64,000 nucleotides of DNA from a bacterium (GTDB lineage Bacteria; Bdellovibrionota_C; UBA2361; RFPC01): the NCBI GenBank assembly GCA_030428205.1, contig JAUIBK010000001.1, positions 199,966 through 263,965 of the forward strand, read 5' to 3'. The position numbers and the translations under genes were made by a program. The number at the start of each line of letters is the position of its first letter. The stretch's first letter is position 1. The notes under the pieces are model-generated. The model had not been told where the DNA came from, did not search any database, and saw only the letters and a program-made list of their open reading frames with translations. Shown here piece after piece: positions 9,944 to 25,297 of this stretch.

Positions 9944-12900
9944 ATGGACGACTTGTTCAGCTTGTTTGAGAAGCCAAAGAACCCAGTAAAATTCAACGCG
10001 CTGCGGATTGCTTTGGCGAGTCCCGAGAAGATTCGAAGCTGGTCTTTTGGTGAGGTAACAAAGCCTGAGACGATTAACTACCGAACACTCAAGCCAGAGC
10101 GCGACGGTCTTTTTTGCGCAAAGATCTTTGGGCCTATCAAGGACTATGAGTGTATCTGCGGAAAGTATAAGCGCCTTCGACACCGTGGTGTTGTCTGTGA
10201 GAAGTGTGGCGTTGAAGTTATACAATCAAAAGTTCGTCGTGAGCGAATCGGTCATATTGAGCTTGCGTGTCCAGTTGCACACATCTGGTTTCTCAAAAGC
10301 TTACCGAGTCGTATTGCTACTATTCTTGATATCACGCTCCGTGATCTTGAGAAGGTGCTCTACTTTGAGAGCTACATCGTTACCGATCCGGGTGATGCCG
10401 AAGACCTCTCATACGGAGAACTTCTCTCAGAGAAAGAGTACCGTACAGCACGAGAGGAGTACGGCACTGAGTTTGAAGCAGGTATGGGAGCAGACACTGT
10501 TCTTACGATGCTCAAAAATATAGAAGTTGAAACACTCTATGATCAACTTCGAGTAGATATTCTTGAAGCTACTTCTGAAGCAAAGCGCAAGAAGTACGCC
10601 AAGCGTCTCAAAGTTGTTTCTTCTTTTAAGAACAGTGACAACCGACCTGAGTGGATGATCCTTAGCGTTGTTCCCGTTATTCCTCCAGATCTCCGTCCAC
10701 TTGTTCCGCTTGATGGTGGACGATTTGCAACAAGTGATCTTAACGATCTCTACCGCCGCGTCATTAACCGTAACAACCGTCTCAAGCGTCTTATGGAGCT
10801 CAACGCTCCAGACATCATTATCCGAAACGAAAAGCGGATGCTCCAAGAGTCCGTTGATGCTCTGTTTGACAACGGTCGTCGTGGAAGAACAATTACGGGG
10901 CCAAACAAGCGCCCACTCAAGTCGCTCAGTGATATGCTGAAAGGAAAAGGTGGGCGTTTCCGTCAGAACCTCCTTGGAAAGCGTGTGGATTACTCTGGCC
11001 GTTCGGTTATCGTTGCTGGTCCAAGCCTTCGGCTTCATCAGTGTGGTCTCCCAAAGAAGATGGCTCTCGAACTCTTTAAGCCGTTTATCTACAACAAGCT
11101 CGAAGAGCGTGGTTATGTAACCACGATTAAGAGTGCGAAGAAGATGGTTGAAAAGAAGAAGTCCGTTGTTTGGGATATCCTCGATGAGGTTATTAAAGAG
11201 CACCCAGTGCTTCTTAACCGCGCACCGACCCTCCACCGTCTTGGTATTCAAGCTTTTGAGCCTCTTCTCGTTGAAGGAAAGGCGATTCAGCTTCATCCAC
11301 TTGTTTGTACAGCCTTTAACGCCGACTTTGACGGCGACCAAATGGCTGTTCACGTTCCTCTCTCTGTCGAAGCGCAGGTTGAGGCTCGTGTGCTTATGAT
11401 GTCAACAAACAACATCCTCAGCCCAGCTGACGGAAAGCCGATTATTGTACCATCTCAAGATATCGTTCTTGGGCTCTACTATATGACTCGTGAACGACCA
11501 TTTGCCAAAGGCGAAGATCGTATCATGAACGGCTTTGAGGAAGTGCACCTTGCTTGGGAAGCTGGAGAAGTTGATCTCCAAGCCAAGATCAAGTGTCGCA
11601 TGGACGGAGAGCTGTATGAGACAACTGTTGGTCGTGTCCTTCTTTATGGACTCACTCCAGACGATCTCCCGTTCTCATTTTTTAACAAAGTGATGAAGAA
11701 GAAGGAGATCTCTGCACTCATCGATTCTTGCTTCCGTATTGCCGGAAACAAGGCCACGGTGCTTCTCGCTGATAAGCTCAAAGACGTTGGATACCGTTTC
11801 GCGACAATCGCTGGCATCTCCATCGGTGTGAAAGACATGGCGATTCCCGATACGAAGGTTACGCTCCTGGCTGAAGCTGATGATAAGGTTGGTGAGATCG
11901 ATAACCAGTACCAAGAAGGCCTTATTACCGCTGGTGAGCGCTACAACAAAGTGATCGATATCTGGTCAGATGTTGGTGACCGCATTAGTGAAGATCTTAT
12001 GACGAATATCTCTACTCAAGAGTTCACGGATGGGGAAAACACCCGTCGTGGAGCTTCGTTTAACTCGATCTACATCATGGCTGACTCTGGTGCTCGGGGT
12101 TCCCAGCAGCAGATTCGTCAGCTCGGTGGAATGCGTGGTCTGATGGCGAAGCCGGATGGCTCCATTATTGAGCAGCCAATTAAGGCGAACTTACGTGAAG
12201 GACTCTCGGTTCTTCAGTACTTCGTATCTACCCACGGTGCTCGTAAAGGTCTCGCTGATACAGCTCTGAAAACTGCGAACTCTGGATATCTTACCCGTCG
12301 TCTTGTTGACGTGTCTCAAGATTGTATCGTCACTCTCAATGACTGTGAGACAACAGAGGGTGTTGAGATTACGGCTCTTGTAGAAGGTGGTGAAGAGATT
12401 GAACCACTTACAAACCGTATTCTCGGTCGTATCGCTGCTGATGATATACTTGATCCAATCACCAATGAGGTTCTTGTTCGTCGTAACGAAGAGATTGATG
12501 AAGATAAGTGTAACATCATCTCTGAGAGTGGTCTTGATTCCGTCATTATCCGTTCGCCACTTACATGTGAGAGCGAGCGCGGTATCTGCGTGAAGTGTTA
12601 CGGTCGTGACCTTGCTCGCGGACACGTTGTAAACGTTGGTGAGGCGGTCGGAGTTATCGCTGCGCAATCAATTGGTGAGCCGGGTACACAGCTTACGATG
12701 AGAACGTTCCACATCGGTGGTGCTGCTTCTGGTCGTGCTGAGCAAAGCTCACTTGAAGCTCGCTTCCCAGGGAAGGTCAAGCTTGAAGACGCACGACTTG
12801 CTGAAAAGCGCGATGGTTCCTTTGTCGTGATGAGCCGTAAGGCCCAGCTTGTTATCGTCGATCCATCTGATAACCGTGAGCGTGAGCGTCATCCTATTGT

Positions 12901-14068
12901 TTACGGTGCGCACCTTCGTGTTCCAGAAGGAAAAGAAGTTGAGTCTGGTGAGCTTCTCGCAGAATGGGATCCATTCACTATTCCTGTCCTCTCCGAAGTT
13001 GCTGGTCGTGTTGAGTGGCAAGACCTCAACGAGCAGACGATGGAAGAGCGTACCGATGAACGTACCGGGTTCTCCGAGCGTGAAATTATCCAAGCGAAAG
13101 ATAAGAGTAGTGATCTCAAGCCTCGTATCGTTATCTACGGTGAGAGTGGGGATACAAAAGTCTACAACCTCCCTGTTGGGGTACGACTTGTTGTTGAACA
13201 CAACGCCGATATCGATGCTGGTGATGTTATTGCTAAGCGAGAGCGTGCAACGACGAAGACAAAAGATATTACTGGTGGTCTCCCACGAGTAGTAGAACTC
13301 TTTGAAGCGCGTAAGCCAAAAGATCCGGCGTTTGTTGCTGATGTTGATGGAACGATTGATTTTGGTGAAGACTCACGTGGTAAGCGTCGTATGATTCTTA
13401 CACCTGAGTTCGGTGAGCCAATTGAGTACCTTGTTCCAAAAACAAAGCACATTGCAGTTCAAAAAGGCGACTCGGTACGAGCTGGAGAATCTCTCACAGA
13501 CGGATCGATTAGCCCGCACGATATCTTACGTATCGAAGGCCGCAAAGCTCTCTCTGCGTATCTTGTAAATGAAGTACAAGAGATCTACCGACTCCAAGGT
13601 GTACGAATCAACGATAAGCACATCGAAGTTATTGTTCGTCAGATGCTCCGTCGTGTAACGATCACTGAGTTCGGTGATTCAGACTTCTTGCCTGGTACCA
13701 ACGTGGATCGCTTTGAAGTGCTCCGTGAGAACCAGCGCATCATGAACGAAGGTGGAACGCCTGCAACGTATGCACCGCTTCTCCTTGGTATTACCAAAGC
13801 AGCTCTTTCAACTGACTCCTTTATCTCAGCAGCAAGCTTCCAAGAGACAACAAAAGTTCTCACCGAAGCTTCTATCTCTGGGTCTATTGATACCCTTCAA
13901 GGACTCAAAGAGAATGTGATCATGGGGCGTCTTATCCCTGCCGGTTCTGGTCTCATTGAGTACCAAGAGCGTGAGGTAAAACTCGAAGGGGAGGAAGAGG
14001 AAGAAGAAGTACAATCCGATTTCCGAATCGGCCAAACTTCTCTCGAGTCTCTTGCTGGGCTCTTGTAG
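9944..14068 (+). CDS. rpoC: DNA-directed RNA polymerase subunit beta'
   Basis: N-terminal zinc-binding cysteines ([20 protein letters not shown]), NADFDGDQM catalytic motif, 1374 aa. Confidence 0.97.
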
Positions 14069-14096
14069 AGCTCTTCTTTTTCAAGAGAGTTCTTCG

Positions 14097-14130
14097 AAAA
14101 GGGAGCGCCATTTGGCGCTCCCTTTTTTTT
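14097..14130 (+). terminator. strong rho-independent terminator after rpoC
   Basis: aaaa-gggagcgcc-attt-ggcgctccc-tttttttt. Confidence 0.8.
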
Positions 14131-14166
14131 GGGGCGGTAGCCTTGAGAAACCTCGCCTTTTCGTTA

Positions 14167-14254
14167 CCACTTACTTGAACTTTTTTCTCCGTGGCTAAGA
14201 TTGTAGAGTAAGGCTGAAGAATCATGCCACGGAGAAAAAAGTTCAAGTAAGTGG
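14167..14254. repeat. perfect 28-bp inverted repeat with a 32-nt spacer
   Basis: ccacttacttgaacttttttctccgtgg (14167-14194) and ccacggagaaaaaagttcaagtaagtgg (14227-14254) are exact reverse complements. Confidence 0.8.
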
Positions 14255-14385
14255 CTGTTCAACCCTATGACCTTCTGACTCCCCATGCCTTGAGCTCTAT
14301 AGAAATGTGTTGACATCTCATGCTGTGCATTCGATGGTTTTGCTATCCCTCTTGCTGTTCACCCAACTTCTCCTAAGGAGGATGC

Positions 14386-15219
14386 ATGATTCGTTTCACA
14401 TTTGGTTTGATATGTTCTGCTCTTCTTGCCTCGAATGCCCTTGCTCTTGTTCCTTCCGTAAGTGAAGTAACAGACAACAGAACCACAGGTCAGTTCTTCT
14501 CAGGGTTGAAGCTTAAAGTACAGCTTGTTGGTGATGAGATGAACGATGTTAAAGGCATCCGCTATATGCTCAAGACGGCCATTGATGACACAGGTCGTAA
14601 TCTTATTGATCCCGAAAAACAAACTGCTGAATTTAAACCTTACAACCAACAGAGCTGGCACCAAAAATACCTCGAACTCGAGCTCAAAAATCCATCTCGA
14701 AAAGCAGCCACCATTAAAGAGATAGCCGGTGAGATTGTGCTCTATATGCCATCAAAAGACCCAAACTCTAAAGTTGAATTCGCCAATGCGCTCTCTCTGA
14801 GTGGCAAACCTCTCAAGCATAATGGCTTACGTGCCGCTGAGGTTAAAATGACCATTTATGACAAAGCCGCCTACGACAAGAAAAAAGCTGATGAAAAGGC
14901 CAAGCAAGAGGCAGCAGCCAAAGGTACACAAGGCGGAATGCGACAGGCTTTTCAAAATATGTTCGGTGGTTTTATGAGCATGGGTGAGAATGATATTGCC
15001 TTTGAAATTGATGACCCAAAAGGTCGTATCGTGAATTACATGTTCGTCGATAGCGCTGGAAACGAGGTGAAACGGATGAGCTGGATAACCTCTGGGGATA
15101 TTCGGACGACTTCATTTCAATCACCGGTTCCAGTTGATGCTAAGTTTGTTGTAGAACTTGCTACACCTAAGAGTGTACTGAGCATTCCTCTTGCATTTAG
15201 CAACGTCGCTTTGCCATAG
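14386..15219 (+). CDS. hypothetical secreted protein (signal peptide; no recognisable domain)
   Basis: N-terminus MIRFTFGLICSALLASNALALV is signal-peptide-like. AGGAGG RBS. Lies directly upstream of the PAAR protein. Confidence 0.6.
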   Translation: MIRFTFGLICSALLASNALALVPSVSEVTDNRTTGQFFSGLKLKVQLVGDEMNDVKGIRYMLKTAIDDTGRNLIDPEKQTAEFKPYNQQSWHQKYLELELKNPSRKAATIKEIAGEIVLYMPSKDPNSKVEFANALSLSGKPLKHNGLRAAEVKMTIYDKAAYDKKKADEKAKQEAAAKGTQGGMRQAFQNMFGGFMSMGENDIAFEIDDPKGRIVNYMFVDSAGNEVKRMSWITSGDIRTTSFQSPVPVDAKFVVELATPKSVLSIPLAFSNVALP

Positions 15220-15302
15220 TACACTTTCCATTTTAAGTTGCTGTAAGCCTTGGGGATTTTCTAGTCCTAACTATGAACAGAGCCGGACTTAAGGCCTGAT
15301 TT

Positions 15303-18300
15303 TTGCTATACTCCCAGGGACGTGTCTTTCCTTGGGAGCTAGTGCCAGTGCCTTTCCGCCTTCTTTTCACAGTTTTCTTTTTTCTGATTTCACACTCGGT
15401 AGCTGCTGAGCAGGTCGACTTTATCTTCAATGGAGATCTGAGCATAAATTGCCATGACGGCACACTCGCTTCCGAGGGGCAATCGTGTGCGAAAAGTGTT
15501 GTTCTGAGTTCTGACTGGAGCATGAGGATCCTCCGAGAAACTCATGCAACCTCTGAGCTTATGCTCTCAGGGAGTGGAGGATCTATTAATACCACTATCC
15601 CTGGATGGACTCCTCGGGATAGTTTCTCTGTGCCTGGAGATCGAATCCGATTAGAGATCTTTCAAAATGCAGGTGCAAGTGGAGATAGTTGCTTTTATCT
15701 CGGAGATGTTTGGGCACACCTTAGAGATCCTCATGACCCTGAGACGAGTTTCTGTCGTTTTTTAGTCTACAAAGACGTTGGTGAAGTCTGCCTTCCTCCT
15801 GGCGGAGTAGCTTCGCAAATGATCTTTGTGCCGCATATTCCTGATGGATGTGATGGGAATCTCTCTGCTTCTGCCACTGTTGAGAACGAATCGATCGAGG
15901 TCGGAGAGGAGCTCAGTACGAGAATTTCTCTCCTCACGAGCACCACAGGTGTTATCACTCGGGGGTGTTGGCCAGGGGTGTTGCACTATAAAGATCTAGC
16001 CTTAGGAAAGGCAGATATTGGCACTCCTCTCGATGAGACTACCTATGGGTATCCAAGCTCTATTACACCAGGTGGCTGCACTCCTGACTACCCATATGTC
16101 ATGAATCCTCATAGTGAACGACATGTCGAGTACGTTGGCCCTGTAAACAAGCCTGGAGTTGTTTCACTTATTCCTGAGGTTCCTTTCTATTCCGTCTTTG
16201 AAACTCCAGATGCTACTGGGCATATGGTTTTTAGTGATCTGAACACAACCGTGGTCACTGTTACAGGAGGCTTAAGGATTCAGGCATTAGCACCAGAGTC
16301 TATACCCGCTGATGGTGAGGTATTTGACATTCAAGTCTCTATCACAAATCAAGGTCAGAAGTCCGCAACATTACCAGAAGCTAACTGCTACGACTATGTG
16401 TATCAAGTTGCCTGTTCTCAGCCTGATCAGGAGTGTTCAAAAACTCAAGTTATTCTGCCGCTTTCAAATCAACCTACAATGGCGGAGGTAACTCTTGCTG
16501 GTGGTCAATCACACTCTTTCACCTGCTCTTACCTAGCTATATCTGAGGGAAGTGTCGACTTCTCGTTTGCAACGACTTGGGAACATCAAAGTGGTAACCC
16601 CGTTTTTACTGATTATTCCTGTGACTCCCATCCTCAAGGAGGAGCACGGTGTTTTGAGCCCACTTTTCAAACTGATAACCGCACAGTTGTTCGAGTCGGT
16701 ATAGGGCCTGGTGGTGAGTGTGGTGATGGGATTATCGATGAGTCTGAGCAGTGTGATGGTGGAGACTGTTGTACGGAGGAATGTACCTACAGAAAATCAG
16801 GTGAACTTTGTCAGGGCGAGAGTATTTGTGCAGAGTCAAATGTTTGTGATGGGCTCTCTGGAGAATGCCGCGGGGCAGATGAAGATCCTAGTATTGAATC
16901 GGTAGAGTTCTCCTTGCTTACTCCTTTAGGTTCGAGCCCAGTGGTGCTGAGTACTGGTTGGGAGTTTGGTGTGAACGCGACAGCTCAGTGTTCAAATGGA
17001 CTCACGAGAGATCTTTCGAGTTATGTAGAGTGGTCAGGAACTGGGACGTTTTCACCTTCGCAGGGAGTTCGCTCTCGTCCTTCGTTTTCGTCACCGGGAA
17101 TCAATTCTATTCGATTTGAGTATGCAGGAGCTTCGCTTTTTGCAGATGAAGTGTCTGTTACGACAAAGTCAGCAAGTGGTTTTGCCGCTGTCGGTGACGA
17201 GGCTTTTTGTCCAGCAGATAGTCATGGAGCCCCCACTGATCCACATGCTGTACAAGGCCCTATTCTTCGAGGAAGCACCTTAGTTACCCTAGGTGGGGCA
17301 CCTGCTGCGCGTATCGGAGATCCAGGAGAGCATGCTGCTTGCTCTGGGCCGAACTCCTTTGTTGTAGCTGCTGGAGATCCTGAGGTCTCAGTTCTTGGAA
17401 GAGCGTTAGCCAGACATGGAGACGCCACAAGCCACTGTGGCGGGAATGGTTCTATCATTTCACCAAAGCTCTCTCTTCCATCAACGTTATCTCTCCGATC
17501 TTCAGGAAGTGGGCAGGTCTCTGGGCGTGTTACTGGTCCAAACGGCGCACCACTTTATGGTATCGCGGTGTCTCTTTTTGATGGAACTGGCAATATTTAT
17601 ACAGCGTGGTCTGATGAGTTAGGCGACTATGTTATAGATAGCCTTCCCGCCGGGAGTTTTACACTTGAATGTAACGGTGCAACGGTGGGTTTACCTGGTA
17701 TCATGCTTAGAGATGGCGTAGGTCTACCCCCTAAGACTTTGAGTCTTGGTGAGGGAGCATCTCTTGTGGGACAAAACTGCACGCTTCCAACCGGAGGTGT
17801 TCTTGCTGGGGTTGTTACCGATACTGCCTTATCTCCGGTAAGTGGCGTTTGGGTCCACGCACGCCCTACGGATCCCACATTTGTGGGCTCGTCTGTACTC
17901 ACTTCCGCTGACGGCTCTTACTCTCTTTCTGGTCTTCTCGAGGGTACCTATCGAGTCTTCGTCTCTGGTAGTGAAGAAGGATTTGAAGACACCTATTATC
18001 CCAACTCAAGAAAGTGGGAACAAGCTCGTATCCTCTCCGTTAAAAATGGCCAAACACAAAAAGGATTAGCTATTCGACTTTCGCTTTTGAATCCTTACGA
18101 ATCTTGTTCTTCTACTTCGCTCATACTCCAAGAGATTCGCTTAGCTCAACTGTTTCGTGAGCAACACAGCTTGGTAACTAAAGCGTCACGTGTGTATAAG
18201 AAAGCTGCGCGTGGTATTGGAGAAAAATTTAAAAAGCGAATAAAGAAAGCAAAGAAGAAAGCAAATATATTGCTTGAAGATTCAAGTGCTGCACTCCAAG

Positions 18301-18563
18301 AACTCCCTCCTGTATCATATTCGGATTGTGGAGGAATTTCACCAGAATGCGTTTCAACTTCTAACGCGAGTGTAAAAAGCTCACTCCTGCTCTTCTCTCA
18401 ACGTCTCTTTCGCGAGACAAAGAAGCTTGTTGCTCGGGAAAAGAAACTTCGAGGGAGTAATACAAAGAGGGCCAAGAAAACGAGAAAGAAAGCACGAAAA
18501 TTTAAAAAAGAGTTATTCTCGCTTGTAGAGGCACTCCCGGGTCAAACCGTGAGCTGTAGTTGA
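15303..18563 (+). CDS. large secreted multidomain protein: N-terminal beta-rich region, Myxococcus-type cysteine-rich repeat, Ig-like domain, PAAR motif domain, two carboxypeptidase-regulatory/transthyretin-like beta-sandwich domains, Lys-rich C-terminal tail
   Basis: PAAR motifs GSTLVTLGGAPAARIGDPGEH...EVSVLGRALARHGDATSHCGG at nt ~17190-17470. Cys-rich ECGDGIIDESEQCDGGDCCTEEC at ~16705-16880. GVVTD...SADGSYSLSGLLEGTYRV TTR-like repeats. C-terminal KKAKKKA...KRAKKTRKKARKFKK. The likely true start is the GTG at 15342 or 15348, giving the signal peptide MPFRLLFTVFFFLISHSVAA with GGGAG 9 nt upstream. Confidence 0.75.
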   Translation: MLYSQGRVFPWELVPVPFRLLFTVFFFLISHSVAAEQVDFIFNGDLSINCHDGTLASEGQSCAKSVVLSSDWSMRILRETHATSELMLSGSGGSINTTIPGWTPRDSFSVPGDRIRLEIFQNAGASGDSCFYLGDVWAHLRDPHDPETSFCRFLVYKDVGEVCLPPGGVASQMIFVPHIPDGCDGNLSASATVENESIEVGEELSTRISLLTSTTGVITRGCWPGVLHYKDLALGKADIGTPLDETTYGYPSSITPGGCTPDYPYVMNPHSERHVEYVGPVNKPGVVSLIPEVPFYSVFETPDATGHMVFSDLNTTVVTVTGGLRIQALAPESIPADGEVFDIQVSITNQGQKSATLPEANCYDYVYQVACSQPDQECSKTQVILPLSNQPTMAEVTLAGGQSHSFTCSYLAISEGSVDFSFATTWEHQSGNPVFTDYSCDSHPQGGARCFEPTFQTDNRTVVRVGIGPGGECGDGIIDESEQCDGGDCCTEECTYRKSGELCQGESICAESNVCDGLSGECRGADEDPSIESVEFSLLTPLGSSPVVLSTGWEFGVNATAQCSNGLTRDLSSYVEWSGTGTFSPSQGVRSRPSFSSPGINSIRFEYAGASLFADEVSVTTKSASGFAAVGDEAFCPADSHGAPTDPHAVQGPILRGSTLVTLGGAPAARIGDPGEHAACSGPNSFVVAAGDPEVSVLGRALARHGDATSHCGGNGSIISPKLSLPSTLSLRSSGSGQVSGRVTGPNGAPLYGIAVSLFDGTGNIYTAWSDELGDYVIDSLPAGSFTLECNGATVGLPGIMLRDGVGLPPKTLSLGEGASLVGQNCTLPTGGVLAGVVTDTALSPVSGVWVHARPTDPTFVGSSVLTSADGSYSLSGLLEGTYRVFVSGSEEGFEDTYYPNSRKWEQARILSVKNGQTQKGLAIRLSLLNPYESCSSTSLILQEIRLAQLFREQHSLVTKASRVYKKAARGIGEKFKKRIKKAKKKANILLEDSSAALQELPPVSYSDCGGISPECVSTSNASVKSSLLLFSQRLFRETKKLVAREKKLRGSNTKRAKKTRKKARKFKKELFSLVEALPGQTVSCS

Positions 18564-18864
18564 GATTCATTCTACTGTTCCTCGGTGAAGAGGGAGGGGG
18601 GAGTGGAACCAACCATTTGTAAGCTAGATTGCTGAAAACACTAGAAGTTTTGTTCTTTTGCCCATCTCGAGGGCGGTAGTGCTTTCTTCGAGTTGAAACC
18701 CCCTTGCCGTACTATGGAATATTTCTTCCTAACGGTATGTAAAAGTGTTGACTTTTGCTACTATCCAGCGACCGAAAGCTCCTCATTCTCATGGAAGTAG
18801 AGCTCAGCGTTAAATATCTTCGTTTTTTTAATTACGTAATACAAAACAACAATAGAGGTGTGTC

Positions 18865-20947
18865 TTGTCAGATATAACAGGGGACCTGCAAAGGTACAGA
18901 AACATCGGAATTTTTGCTCACGTTGATGCCGGAAAAACAACAACGACCGAGCGTATCCTTAACCTTACCGGAAAGATTCATAAGCTTGGTGAGGTACACG
19001 ACGGAGAAGCTACAACAGACTTTATGGATCAAGAGCGTGAGCGGGGGATTACCATCCAGTCTGCTGCTACTAGTTGTTCTTGGAACGATCACCGTCTCAA
19101 CATTATTGATACTCCCGGGCACGTGGACTTTACCATTGAGGTATACCGTAGTCTGAAAGTGCTTGATGGTGGTATTGGCGTTTTCTGTGGATCTGGTGGT
19201 GTTGAGCCACAATCGGAAACAAACTGGCGCTATGCAAACGACTCAAAAGTAGCCCGCCTTATTTTTGTAAATAAACTTGACCGAGTTGGGGCTGACTTCT
19301 TCCGAGTAGTGAATCAAGTCAAAGATGTCCTCGGTGCGAAGCCTCTTATTATGACGCTTCCTATCGGAGCAGAGAGTGAGTTTAGAGGTGTCGTGGATCT
19401 CATCACACGTAAAGCTTGGGTGTGGGACGAGTCAGGCGATCCTATGAAGTTTGAGATCCAAGATCCACCAGCAGACATGGCGGATCAGGTTGAGAAGTAC
19501 CGCGAAGAGATGATCGAAACAGCTCTTGAGCAAGATGAAGAAGCTATGGAAGCATACCTCGAAGGTACTGAGCCTAGCGAGGAGGTCATCAAGAATTGTA
19601 TTCGTAAGGGAACAATTGCTCTCGACTTTTTCCCAGCATTTTGTGGCTCAGCATTTAAGAACAAAGGGGTGCAACCTCTTCTTGATGCTGTTGTTGATTA
19701 CCTTCCGAACCCAACGGAAGTCCCACCACAACCTGAAATTGATCTTGAAGGACACCCAACAGGGGAGTTCGCTGTTGCGTGCTCTTGCCTTTAAGATCAT
19801 GGAAGACAGGTACGGAGCACTCACGTTCCTCCGCATTTACTCTGGAAAGCTTGAGAAAGGTACTACGGTTGTAAATACCTACACAGGCCGAAAAGAGCGA
19901 ATCGGTCGGATTGTTGAGATGCACGCGGATTCTCGAGAAGAGCTTAGCTCTGCAAAAGCAGGAGACATCGTTGCTGTACTCGGAATGAAAGAAGTTCAAA
20001 CTGGGCACACGCTTGCTGACCCTGATAACCCAGCAACGCTTGAGCCAATGGTTTTCCCTGATCCAGTTATCTCCATCGCGATTGATACGAAGGAGAAAGG
20101 AGACCGGGATAAGCTTGGAGTTGCACTCTCAAAGATGACTTCGGAAGATCCATCGTTTCGTGTTGAGACAGATGAGGAGACGGGAGAAACTATCCTCAAA
20201 GGGATGGGAGAGCTTCACCTTGATATTAAGATCGACATCATCAAACGCACCTACGGTATTGAGTGTGTCGCTGGTGCTCCTCAGGTTGCTTACCGTGAAA
20301 CAATCACGAAGCGAACAGAAGATAGCTACACACACAAGAAGCAAACGGGTGGATCTGGCCAGTTTGGTAAGATTGACTTCGTTATCGAGCCAAATGAGCC
20401 TGGTGAAGGATTTGAGTTTGTTTCTGAGATTAAAGGTGGAAACGTACCAAAAGAATTTTGGCCTGCTATTGAGAAAGGTTTCAAGCTTAGCCTTGAAGAA
20501 GGCGTGCTTGCAGGCTTTCAATGTATCGATGTGAAGATCACATTGGTCGATGGTGGATACCACGCGGTTGACTCCTCTGCCGTTGCTTTTGAGCTCTGTG
20601 CGAAAGGTGCTTACCGTCAGGTCATGCCAAAGGCTGGGCCTCAGATTCTTGAGCCGATCATGAAGGTCGACTGTTACGTTCCTGAAGATTACGTTGGTGA
20701 TACCATTGGAGACCTTAACCGTCGTCGCGGTATGATTAACTCTCAGGAAGTTGGTGCTACGGGTGCTCGCATCCAAGCGAACGTTCCTCTTTCAGAGATG
20801 TTTGGTTACATCGGTGATCTTCGAACAATGACTTCTGGTCGTGGTCAGTTCTCTATGGAATTCTTGAACTATCAGCCGTGCCCAACCACGGTGACTGAAG
20901 CGGTCATTAAAGAAGCTCAGGAGCGAAAAGAGGCTCGGAATAAATAA
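18865..20947 (+). pseudogene. elongation factor G paralog (EF-G2-like), reading frame broken by a +1 frameshift near 19780-19790
   Basis: Frame 1 (18865-19794, TTG start) encodes the complete G domain ([20 protein letters not shown]...[12 protein letters not shown]...NKLDR) and ends ...[11 protein letters not shown]. Frame 2 resumes ...[25 protein letters not shown] and encodes domains II-V through 20947. Skipping one G restores [12 protein letters not shown], which aligns to [10 protein letters not shown] of the bona fide fusA. Confidence 0.8.
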
Positions 20948-21284
20948 TTCTTAGCTTTTTAGCGAAAAAGCTTCTTAAGGGCGTGTGATACTTTGGTGGT
21001 ATCATGCGCCTTTTGCATATTTGGTACCTCAACTATACCAGGCGCACTTCAAAACGCCCGGCATCTTGTGATGCATTATCCATCCTGGAGAGCATTTTGA
21101 AGTACGCCTGGTACGGCTGTATCTTCCCTCTCCGACTACGCTCTTCGAGCTTCGTCGTGACCTGAGCTCCTAAGGACCACGTCGTAGCCTTTGGCGAAGA
21201 CGGGCGGGGGATACTCCCCGCCGACGGTGCTTATTGAACCGGAAATTTCAAGTGCGGGGAGTATAACTTTTCGCATTAATCTTA

Positions 21285-21345
21285 GTATTAGCCTCCGCCT
21301 TAGCCTATATCTTGGTTTTGGTCTTATTATTGGTATCAGCCTACC
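21285..21345. repeat. solo half-copy (right arm) of palindromic element family 1
   Basis: gcctatatcttggttttggtcttattattggtatcagcct is about 85% identical to the right arm of the elements at 36757-36799 and 42843-42884. Confidence 0.6.
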
Positions 21346-21796
21346 TCTTCAAAAATGAAAACCACGGAGTTTCCGTAGTTCGCGGAGGACTTCACGGAGA
21401 AGTTTATAAATCCCCCTCCGTGAAACTCTCCGTGTTCGCCGTGCCCTCCGTGGTTTATCCATGAATAATGCGGGTTAAACCGAGACTTGGCCCATGGCCT
21501 CGCTTGGAGAAGAGCCTCCTCTGTCTCCTGTTAAATCGGGTCCCATAAGAGCAAATGGTTAGCTGTGGGCAACTTTTATAACCCATTGATAACTTTAGGC
21601 ATATCATGCGCAAGCCCTCCTGCTTGCCCCCTGCTTCAAATACTGTCAAGAATTTCTTTCCCTGAGTTTGACTCTACCCAAATAGACGTGCTATCACATG
21701 CATTCTCGACTGGCGGGAAACTGCTGGTTGGTGCCCCCTGCGCTTGGTGTAAGCCAGTGAAATAAGGGGTTCCTTCCGCGGTCTTCTGTATTTTTT

Positions 21797-21823
21797 GGAG
21801 CTCGCTGAGCTCGTTTTTTTTGT
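21797..21823 (+). terminator. terminator-like hairpin plus T-run inside the ORF-free region upstream of rpsL
   Basis: ggagctc-gct-gagctc followed by gtttttttttg. Confidence 0.45.
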
Positions 21824-22273
21824 TTTTCTATGTGACCCGTTGCAAGTTCACATAGATAGGCCACCAATCAGGTGGAAACAAGAAACGAAACGGTTTAGCG
21901 GGGTATGAGTTGCCCATTAAAAGCGCTCCTGCCACAGAAACGGCAAGATGCAAGGCCTCTAACCTGGGGACGCAACATCTTGGCGGTTTTCCATCGAGGA
22001 CTTCCATAAGTGTTTTGGCACTCGCTTTTCATTGAAAGATGGTAAGTCGAGGGCAAGCAGGATCAAAACCAGGGATTGTGAACATTTACATAGTGTTTCC
22101 GGACTAATCTCTTTTTATAGAGCGTGCTGTTTTCCGGTAATAGTTTTTTAACGATAGCGTTTCACGCTGATTCGTGAAGTTCGCTTGCACTCTTTTTTTT
22201 TGCAAGTAAATGAATCGACTCGGTGGGAAACATTTACTCGAAATGAACTGTAATCATTGAGGGATGAGGCGGG

Positions 22274-23197: not shown

Positions 23198-25297
23198 GTG
23201 GCTAACCAAGATCTCACAAAAGTGCGAAATATCGGCATCATGGCACACATTGATGCTGGTAAGACGACCACTACCGAGAGGATCCTCTTTTACACGGGGA
23301 TCAACTACAAGATCGGTGAGGTGCATGATGGTGCGGCCACTATGGACTACATGGAACTTGAGCAAGAGCGTGGAATTACGATCACCTCTGCTGCGACTTC
23401 GTGTAAGTGGAGTGGTGGGGAAGGCCAGCTTCCTGAGCACGATATCAATATTATCGATACTCCAGGTCACGTTGATTTCACTATTGAGGTGGAGCGTAGC
23501 TTACGTGTTCTCGATGGGGCTGTAGCTGTTTTTGATGCGGTCAACGGTGTTGAGCCTCAATCTGAAACTGTTTGGCGACAAGCCACAAAGTTTGGTGTTC
23601 CACGCTTTTGTTTCATCAATAAGATGGATAAGACTGGAGCAAACTTTGAGTATGCCGTTAGCACTATCCGTGATCGTCTTGGAGCAAATGCTGTACCACT
23701 TCAGGTCATGATCGGCGCCGAAGGCGATCTTAAAGGTGTTATTGATCTCGTAGAAATGAAAGCCATTGTTTATCACGATGAGACAATGGGAGCGAAGTAC
23801 GATATCGAAGAAATTCCAGCTGAGTACGCTGATAAAGCTGCAAGTGCTAGGGATTATATGCTTGAGTCAATCGCTGAGTGCGATGAGGCTTTCATGGAGA
23901 AATATCTCGGTGGGGAAGAGCTCTCTGCTGATGAGATTCGAGCAACTATTCGTAAAGGTGTTCTCACCCGTGCTATTTTTCCTGTGTTAGGTGGAAGTGC
24001 TTTTAAGAACAAGGGGGTTCAGCCTCTTCTTGATGCAGTTGTTCACTACCTCCCATCACCACTTGAAGTCCCCCCAGTAAGTGGCTTTGCTCCAGACGAT
24101 ACAGAAGAGCAAACACCAATAACACTCGAAGCAAAGTCTGATGAGCCGTTCTCTGCGCTTGCTTTTAAGATCATTACGGACCCATACGTTGGTGTCCTTA
24201 CGTTCTTTCGAGTGTACTCAGGAACACTTGATGCTGGTTCAACAATTTTCAATGCTACCCGTGGTAAAAAAGAGCGTATCGGTCGTATCGTACGTATGCA
24301 TGCTGATAAGCGTGAAGAGGTCAAAACAATTAGCGCTGGAGATATTGGTGCGGCTGTTGGCCTTAAAGAAACGTACACTGGTGATACCATTTGCTCTATG
24401 GAGAAGCCGGTACTTCTTGAAAGTATTTATGCCCCAGAGCCTGTAATCGGTGTGGCGATTGAGCCGAAGTCGAAAGCGGATGAAGAGAAGATGGGCTTGG
24501 CTCTTATGAAGCTCTCAAAAGAAGACCCGTCACTACGCGTGCGCACAGATGAAGAGAGTGGCCAAACAATTATCGCTGGAATGGGTGAGCTTCACCTTGA
24601 TGTGATCAAGAGCCGCCTTGAGAGAGAATTTAGTGTCAACACAACCGTTGGTAAGCCTCAGGTTGCATATCGTGAGACCATTACGGCTCCAATGACTGAG
24701 CACGAGGTCAAATACGCCAAGCAAACAGGTGGTCGTGGTCAATTTGGACATGTCCATATCCGCTTTGAGCCACTAGAGGCCGGCGCGGGCTTTGAGTTTG
24801 TTGACGAGATTAAGGGTGGTGTGATTCCCAAAGAGTACATTCCTGCTGTGAAAAATGGTGTCGAAGAAGCTCTCAAAGGTGGGATCCTCGCTGGATACCC
24901 TGTCATTGATGTCAAGGCGACTCTCTACTACGGGAGTTTCCACGAAGTTGACTCAAGTGAAATGGCTTTTAAGATTGCTGGTTCGATGTGTACAAAAGAA
25001 GGCTGCCGTAAGGCTGGCATAAAACTTCTCGAGCCAGTGATGAAGGTTGAAGTAGTAAGTCCTGAAGAGTTCACAAGCAATGTAGTTGGTGATCTCAACA
25101 GAAGACGCGCTCGAATTCTTGGCATGGAGGCTCGTGCTGGTGCTCAGGTAGTAAAAGCTGAAGTACCTCTTGCTGAAATGTTTGGGTATGCAACAGATCT
25201 TCGTTCAAATTCTCAGGGACGTGCAAATTTTACGATGGAATATGACCACTATGGTGAGGTTCCGTCGCACGTATCTGAAAGTATTGCGGCGAAGTAG
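23198..25297 (+). CDS. fusA: elongation factor G (GTG start)
   Basis: 699 aa with G1-G5 motifs, domain IV loop HEVDSS. Position between rpsG and tuf. Confidence 0.96.

Follow-up and report, generated by a model that had tools for sequence, protein, structure and literature searches.

A PAAR domain paired with an Ig-like domain in a predicted exported protein of a Bdellovibrionota_C bacterium: a probable extracellular use of the PAAR cone

The spikes of type VI secretion systems (T6SS) and of extracellular contractile injection systems (eCIS) undergo assembly in the cytoplasm. T6SS tips of the VCA0105 and c1882 type are PAAR proteins of about 95 amino acids located in the cytoplasm, or N-terminal domains of toxins, and are encoded together with vgrG. 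The eCIS tip SalCis10 has been described as one PAAR-like unit that caps the trimer of Cis8 (PMC13266070). PAAR has been held to be strictly tied to T6SS contexts, fixed at the N-terminus of toxins and acting as a T6SS export determinant (Zhang et al. 2012, PMC3482391), and a 2021 survey of 47,625 PAAR proteins, in which signal peptides are never mentioned, took all of them as T6SS or eCIS tips (PMC8651086). Here we describe a PAAR domain encoded in a 64-kb stretch of DNA from a bacterium of the Bdellovibrionota_C (contig JAUIBK010000001.1, positions 199,966 to 263,965; hereafter the window). The domain lies inside a protein of 1071 amino acids, directly after an immunoglobulin-like (Ig-like) domain, and the analysis indicates that it is a true PAAR cone that is probably used outside the cytoplasm and not in a contractile injection spike. 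The parts of the window needed for this argument are the following.

15348..18563, plus strand: coding sequence of the 1071-amino-acid PAAR-containing protein (preferred GTG start at 15348; the longest open reading frame begins at a TTG at 15303)
16887..17183, plus strand: conserved Ig-like beta-sandwich, always just before PAAR in the family, with motifs SPxVxxxGW and WSGTGxFxP
17184..17462, plus strand: PAAR domain with repeats FAAVGD, PAARIGD and LARHGD and conserved His/Cys residues (ADSH, EHAAC, SHCGG), identified with Pfam, PDB sequences and Foldseek

The region 17100-17560, read in the frame of the plus-strand open reading frame (ORF) 15303-18563, translates to a sequence that includes GFAAVGDEAFCPADSHGAPTDPHAVQGPILRGSTLVTLGGAPAARIGDPGEHAACSGPNSFVVAAGDPEVSVLGRALARHGDATSHCGGNGSII, and the PAAR domain covers residues 628-720 in the numbering of this 1086-codon ORF. 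Judged by sequence, the resemblance to PAAR is far above that of a chance motif. With PF05488 (PAAR_motif) the whole protein scores 46 bits (E 6e-12) and the excised region 59.4 bits (E 4e-16), the gathering cut-off being 27. A phmmer search of the PDB sequences with the window protein rendered SalCis10 (E 1.2e-8), VCA0105 (4JIV_D, 1.5e-4) and c1882 (4JIW_D, 0.011), while a family profile improved these values to 1.2e-13 (SalCis10) and 2e-8 and also detected the PAAR domains of Tre23 and Tas1 and a T6SS spike PAAR. The three PAAR-type repeats FAAVGD, PAARIGD and LARHGD align to SalCis10 and VCA0105. The original prediction, made from the letters alone, had located a PAAR domain at 17190-17470; it is genuine at that site, and the structural model moves its limits to about 17184-17462. 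The codons that literally spell P-A-A-R, cct gct gcg cgt, are found exactly at 17301-17312, inside GAPAARIGD, and translation places FCPADSHG at 17205-17228 and GRALARHGD at 17397-17423. As to the three repeats that had been proposed, GAPAARIGD and GRALARHGD stand, but FCPADSHG is the His/Cys loop just after the first repeat, which is better taken as G-F-A-A-V-G-D from 17187; this stretch lines up with 'MPxAARxGD' at the N-terminus of classical relatives and, in SalCis10, with 'ARITD'. The repeats had been ascribed a G-S-x-x-V-x-(I/L)-x-G spacing, which is found in the second (GSTLVTLGG), whereas the third (GDPEVSVLG) fits it only loosely.

The Ig-like and PAAR halves were modelled together with AlphaFold2 (ORF residues 529-726, window 16887-17480, from an alignment of 42 sequences), which rendered a mean predicted local distance difference test (pLDDT) of 93 and a predicted template modelling score (pTM) of 0.85. 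In Foldseek comparisons the C-terminal half of this model matched c1882 (4JIW_D, template modelling score, TM, 0.72), VCA0105 (4JIV_D, TM 0.69) and phage phiKZ gp163.1 (6P1Z_D, TM 0.62), each with a Foldseek probability of 1.00, and a library of viral structures gave matches only to stand-alone phage PAAR proteins and to Big_2 domains. The alignment to VCA0105 and c1882 that had been proposed as a check therefore gives both sequence matches and a superposition (TM 0.69-0.72). Since the repeats superimpose on the PAAR fold (4JIW, 4JIV), the possibility of a chance motif, raised at the outset, falls away; as far as the predicted model can tell, the domain is a PAAR fold. The N-terminal half resembles bacterial Ig-like domains in Foldseek (LigB 2MOG, TM 0.58; Rib; SbsC), and it gave no sequence match in Pfam or the PDB even when the family consensus or profile was used. 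It aligns over 113 family representatives, with a model pLDDT above 90, and the model predicts that it is joined to the PAAR cone without a linker, so that the two would be one rigid unit. The PAAR domain had been called the key diagnostic element of the protein; this holds for its identity, both in sequence and in predicted fold, but the pair of Ig-like domain and PAAR, 16887-17462, is the more diagnostic element.

The remainder of the protein is composed of parts that are typical of exported or surface proteins.

15348..15413, plus strand: Sec-type signal peptide, MPFRLLFTVFFFLISHSVAA, with a putative cleavage site before EQ (sequence features and model)
15414..16736, plus strand: N-terminal region of about 440 amino acids, fold unassigned, common only to two orthologues
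16737..16871, plus strand: Cys-rich, disintegrin-like stretch beginning CGDGIIDESEQCDGGDCCTEEC (weak resemblance)
17514..17672, plus strand: first CarboxypepD_reg-like beta-sandwich (PF13620; modelled strands at residues 722-776 of the 1071-residue product)
17733..18077, plus strand: second beta-sandwich region, CarboxypepD_reg- or SdrD_B-like (modelled strands at residues 796-910 of the same product)
18111..18530, plus strand: Lys/Arg-rich C-terminal region with four predicted long helices in two hairpins; the protein ends ...VSCS

The GTG start at 15348 is preceded, 9 nt upstream, by a Shine-Dalgarno-like GGGAG, and an identical 1071-amino-acid product (P0001) is called from this GTG on one 9.7-kb contig of a public Logan assembly; the public record holds only this GTG-start product, the 1086-amino-acid ORF having no exact match. 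In the sequence that follows, a short Arg-containing n-region leads into a hydrophobic core and a V-A-A motif, and AlphaFold2 renders this part (residues 2-19) as a helix isolated at the N-terminus. The N-terminal region is collinear with that of two full-length orthologues, P0003 (E 1e-63) from a metagenome-assembled genome (MAG) of the Bdellovibrionales and P0007 (E 6e-73) from GCA_041740355.1; nothing beyond a weak CARDB match (E 0.085) was found for it in Pfam and PDB sequences, and in the full-length AlphaFold2 run residues 22-511 gave no usable model, with a pLDDT below 50 in the N-terminal region. The Cys-rich stretch resembles Pfam Disintegrin at E 4e-4 to 1e-3, which is below the cut-off of that family, and ADAM10 disintegrin domains at E 0.014. 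PF13620 matches the whole protein with E 1e-19, its best stretch being residues 738-790; a second PF13620 stretch falls in the second beta-sandwich, where SdrD_B scores 29.7 bits. The helices of the tail were modelled at 922-954, 960-984, 1007-1033 and 1040-1061 with pLDDT 60-80, and the basic tail is conserved in P0003 and P0007, which likewise end in Cys-Ser or Cys-Gly-Ser. Pfam detected no toxin, Rhs repeat or T6SS adaptor domain in the window protein.

A hydrophobic stretch ahead of a PAAR domain also calls to mind the prePAAR-type T6SS effectors, in which it would be a transmembrane domain (TMD) for insertion into membranes, held by an Eag chaperone, and effectors with hydrophobic helices N-terminal to PAAR are indeed known (PMC7773334, PMC3482391). 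Their described features are the motif AARxxDxxxH, the TMD, the Eag chaperone and an Rhs or toxin part (PMC7773334). In the window protein the motif is absent before the hydrophobic stretch, which begins as early as residue 4 and ends V-A-A, and about 490 hydrophilic, Cys-rich residues separate this stretch from PAAR. Rhs repeats and a toxin domain are absent according to Pfam, which found no Eag-type chaperone among the scanned neighbouring ORFs, the upstream ORF having no family, and relatives of the protein carry lipobox and twin-arginine leaders. A prePAAR effector is thus extremely improbable, and this candidate was rejected on anatomy (no motif, a stretch from residue 4, no Rhs or toxin part).

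When 1.84 billion cluster representatives were searched exhaustively with HMMER, the PAAR region as query matched 673 of them at E <= 1e-3, of which 366 reached E <= 1e-10. On the other hand, a word-indexed search with the full protein recovered nothing beyond its own sequence and a single weak beta-sandwich match, and the same search with the module found 5 proteins. The layout was analysed in the best 150 of the 673 representatives. In 117 of them an Ig-like domain of about 95-100 amino acids, with the family motifs 'LELTYPAGxSPKVFTxGW' and 'WSGTGxFxP', is followed directly by PAAR (module type); the module lies within the protein or at its very C-terminal end, and 52 of the 117 proteins end 12 residues or fewer past it. 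Another 28 are of the classical type, with PAAR at residues 3-97 ('MPxAARxGD...'). With a simple script for hydrophobicity and motifs, an export or anchor signal was scored in 103 of the 117 module-type proteins, about 90% (Sec-like in 74, lipobox-like in 10, twin-arginine in 10, and a hydrophobic segment farther upstream in 9); 12 were scored as having none, at least 5 of which have RR-type leaders when inspected by eye. None of the 28 classical-type proteins has a hydrophobic N-terminus according to the same script. All 102 module proteins that were scanned match PAAR_motif, and the domains that accompany the module include CarboxypepD_reg, SdrD_B, FecR, SpaA, F5/8 type C, TIL, PKD, Big_1, LamG, LRR and N-terminal zinc ribbons; Rhs, toxin and VgrG domains are absent from all 102. 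A scan of one genome per GTDB species with the family consensus sequence detected the full module in Bacillota, Dehalococcoidia, Holophagaceae, Actinomycetota, Desulfobacterota, Pirellulales, Armatimonadota, Bacteroidota, Myxococcota and Bdellovibrionales, among other bacteria, and, among archaea, in two phyla, Thermoplasmatota and Methanobacteriota; Myxococcota supplied most of the PAAR-only matches. The two layouts were not clearly separated in a neighbour-joining tree of the PAAR domains.

Of the 113 aligned modules, 112-113 keep the His of ADSH, the Cys of AAC and both residues of the His-Cys pair in SHCGG, and 96 keep the His of 'EHAAC'. The last Cys, that of SHCGG, aligns with the Cys of VCA0105 'DCGG', so that the conserved residues are likely the counterpart of the PAAR metal site, and the invariant His and Cys residues would form a site near the cone vertex whose metal, presumably zinc, stabilises the module. 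Three further cysteines (HG-C-xx-C-PH and AC-C-G, window 17226-17240 and 17331-17345) co-vary, all three being present in 88 of the 113 modules. This triad may represent a second cluster, of metal or disulfide type. In the window protein these positions read A/D/S, as in 5 others (6 of 113), so that it is a minority variant that would lack such a cluster.

The association with spike genes was analysed with eight Pfam-verified VgrG/gp5-like proteins as queries. VgrG/gp5-like genes were found near 21 of 49 classical, PAAR-only loci, 8 of which had supplied the queries, so that their own matches are trivial. Around 35 module-type sequences, the window included (553 kb, within 10 kb of the module), the same queries gave one marginal match (E 7.7e-4), and no match was obtained in the six-frame translation of the window. 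Pfam analysis of about 40 of the larger ORFs of the window rendered housekeeping functions only (nusG, ribosomal proteins, secY, a rhomboid protein, two-component sensors, LptE and an OmpA-family protein), with no VgrG, T6SS or eCIS gene among them. Likewise, the two full-length orthologues are found among genes for other large secreted proteins, away from rpoC and away from injection genes. The NCBIfam equivalog model NF033420 (T6SS_PAAR_dom) gives the whole protein 26.9 bits and the excised region 31.6 bits, its cut-off being 124. T6SS spike tips are expected to be cytoplasmic, without Sec or Tat signals, and to be associated with vgrG or other T6SS genes; the protein described here has a signal-like N-terminus, and that association was seen neither in the 64-kb window nor convincingly around the 35 module-type sequences. 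An eCIS tip would be a small stand-alone protein in an eCIS operon; this one has 1071 amino acids and lies between rpoC and a paralogue of elongation factor G (EF-G).

Several observations nonetheless weigh against an extracellular use of this PAAR cone, and some of them would fit a specialised T6SS or eCIS effector in which PAAR caps a VgrG from another part of the genome and carries cargo in the form of the large N- and C-terminal extensions. PAAR is said to tolerate extensions at both termini, as Shneider et al. reportedly found in 2013. The fold is that of a true PAAR, with an eCIS tip, SalCis10, as its best PDB sequence match, and the PAAR half is about 50% identical to N-terminal PAARs that adjoin VgrG genes, so that binding to the tip of a trimeric beta-helix is perhaps kept. 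Export signals were called by a simple script based on hydrophobicity and motifs rather than by a trained predictor. Moreover, only 62.3% of classical PAAR genes have a vgrG within 20 genes (PMC8651086); orphan PAAR genes being so common, the local absence of vgrG is weak evidence for any single gene. Such an effector is nevertheless quite unlikely, because a Sec signal would take the protein out of the cytoplasm, the site of spike assembly, because lipoprotein and Tat signals are seen in the family, which extends to archaea and Gram-positive phyla, and because toxin, Rhs and adaptor domains were found neither in the window protein nor in the 102 scanned module proteins; the far lower NF033420 score and the lack of a convincing spike gene near the 35 module-type sequences point in the same direction. 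The role as a T6SS spike tip that the original prediction implied is not supported, in view of the Sec signal, the domains of extracellular type, NF033420 scores of 27-32 bits versus 124, a window with no T6SS gene and a family of exported proteins.

A cleavable Sec, lipoprotein or Tat leader means that a protein leaves the compartment in which spikes are assembled. Taken together, the export signals, the partner domains of extracellular type, the occurrence in archaea and Gram-positive bacteria and the fact that no convincing spike genes were found close by argue against a spike tip, which is thus unlikely. That the organism is a diderm is indicated by LptE and the OmpA-family protein, and its two full-length orthologues, of which P0003 is from the Bdellovibrionales, suggest that it probably belongs to the Bdellovibrionota. 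The Sec signal peptide would direct export across the inner membrane, and the exported protein would fold as a string of modules of extracellular type: the N-terminal region of about 440 amino acids, the disulfide-rich disintegrin-like stretch, the Ig-like and PAAR pair, the two CarboxypepD_reg-type beta-sandwiches and the basic helical tail. In the family, the pair would be a portable extracellular module carried by varied proteins with surface, adhesion or sensor-type domains. From its sequence and those of its relatives, the PAAR cone has probably been co-opted along with an Ig-like domain dedicated to it, and the two would make up an extracellular module that is rigid and stabilised by metal. 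This module could be a knob for binding or capping, compact and very stable, on a protein that is presumably at the surface or secreted.

It could also be the case that the exported module keeps beta-helix capping outside the cell, acting on trimeric surface fibres of its own or, as a decoy or adhesin, on the tips of foreign phage tails or injection spikes. The PAAR core is highly conserved, with glycine-rich strands in common with the VgrG-linked relatives, the module is rigid (pTM 0.85), and it is portable and spread over phyla, all of which would suit capping. However, neither the comparison of neighbours nor the spike search found a beta-helical partner gene conserved beside the module family, and the Ig-like domain may sit on the cone base, so that we regard this possibility as unlikely. 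As to PAAR at large, we lean towards the view that it is not exclusive to injection machines and that, with a new Ig-like domain, it constitutes an extracellular module that is widespread in proteins exported by Sec or Tat, both in bacteria (some of them from phyla that are not known to have T6SS) and in archaea, and that may still keep beta-helix capping or binding.

The PAAR gene is part of an insertion of about 8 kb (14069-22273), with rpoC (9944-14068) on one side and, from 22274, the rpsL-rpsG-fusA-tuf operon on the other. The junction between rpoC and rpsL is usually tight, and the insert is no different from its flanks in GC content. Besides the PAAR protein, the insertion encodes an exported hypothetical protein of 277 amino acids and a frameshifted EF-G paralogue.

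14386..15219, plus strand: hypothetical protein of 277 amino acids with its own signal peptide, upstream of the PAAR gene (translation)

This protein matches no Pfam family. Its gene may be co-transcribed with the PAAR gene, and the pair is also found on the Logan contig; the 277-amino-acid gene is not beside the orthologues P0003 and P0007. The second EF-G gene (18865-20947) is 55% identical to the main fusA (23198-25297), and a frameshift near 19760-19790 breaks it into two ORFs that overlap, which could reflect a pseudogene or a one-base assembly error. In the 1.3 kb upstream of rpsL (20948-22273) all ORFs have 66 amino acids or fewer, and there was no Rfam match at gathering thresholds. 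A scan for promoters and terminators found only a hairpin at the end of rpoC. Three tRNA genes are located at 266-775 on the minus strand, upstream of the nusG-rplK-rplA-rplJ-rplL-rpoBC cluster. Within the PAAR protein, the final 150 residues (18111-18563) are very rich in Lys and Arg, with helical segments followed by 'LPxxSYSDC' and 'LPGQTVSCS', and all three orthologues end ...CS or ...CGS; this tail, with its LP..C/S end, may be an element for envelope anchoring or sorting.

Some loci of the family have neighbours of their own. Directly downstream of P0007 there is an ORF of about 1092 amino acids (L084, 8189-11467) without Pfam match, which is not homologous to the N-terminal region, the C-terminal region or the Ig-like and PAAR module of the window protein. 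A methyltransferase dependent on S-adenosylmethionine (SAM) follows the module gene in 7 loci (L010, 9062-12818; L004, L009, L016, L019, L028 and L031), and a B12-binding radical SAM enzyme does so in 4; these loci belong to Dehalococcoidia, one Methanobacteriota archaeon and Ilumatobacteraceae. A conserved protein of about 240 amino acids, without Pfam match, precedes the module gene in five loci, four of them from Dehalococcoidia/Dehalococcoidales and one from an Actinobacteria MAG (L006). Such neighbours, absent from the window, may form a modification cassette. In a Gammaproteobacteria MAG (L035, 10001-10568) the module is broken into four reading-frame pieces, as a result of either a pseudogene or a poor assembly.

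A literature search on PAAR, which included PMC3482391 and PMC8651086, rendered no description of a class of Ig-like and PAAR proteins with signal peptides. PAAR is widely used as a marker of T6SS and eCIS effectors, so that a large class of PAAR proteins with signal peptides would be mislabelled as T6SS; two members of the family carry the Joint Genome Institute label 'Zn-binding protein involved in type VI secretion'. Recognising the module would avert false calls of T6SS effectors in metagenomes and would add a new domain family, the Ig-like half having no Pfam model. It also raises the question of what a spike-sharpening cone does outside cells, possibly in prey contact by Bdellovibrio-like predators. 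The finding does not by itself solve a long-standing problem; its main value lies in the caution that it advises on PAAR as a T6SS marker and in the entry that it gives to an undescribed extracellular two-domain module.

Compared with known systems, the window protein resembles the prePAAR/TMD effectors Tse6 and RhsA (PMC7773334) in having a hydrophobic N-terminal segment before PAAR; unlike them, it has no prePAAR motif, Rhs repeats, toxin domain or, as judged by Pfam in the scanned neighbours, Eag chaperone, and its segment looks like a cleavable signal peptide. It shares with the T6SS tips VCA0105 and c1882 the fold (model TM 0.69-0.72), the repeat pattern, the alignment of the C-terminal 'xCGG' and a PF05488 score above the cut-off, whereas its PAAR domain is internal, placed after a signal peptide and an Ig-like domain, and lacks a T6SS context in the 64 kb. 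In the CDD sub-families PAAR_CT_1 and PAAR_CT_2, PAAR is located at the C-terminus of longer proteins, as in 52 of the 117 module proteins, in which family this layout is the most frequent; we know of no functional account of these sub-families and of no description of a coupled Ig-like domain or of export signals in them. To our knowledge, therefore, the C-terminal PAAR layout has already been catalogued but not explained. The best PDB sequence match, the eCIS tip SalCis10 (Afp10/Cis10 type, PDB 9RCE), shares even the N-terminal 'CP...PH' loop, but it is a stand-alone protein of 99 amino acids encoded within an eCIS operon, in contrast to the window protein and its module relatives, which have no eCIS spike genes nearby. 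Finally, the Myxococcota proteins with N-terminal PAAR ('MPxAARxGD...HGCPxCPH') have about 50% PAAR identity and His/Cys loops in common with the window protein; in them, however, PAAR is at residues 3-97 with no signal peptide (0 of 28), VgrG/gp5-like genes are near 21 of 49 loci, and the Cys triad, replaced by A/D/S in the window protein, is mostly present.

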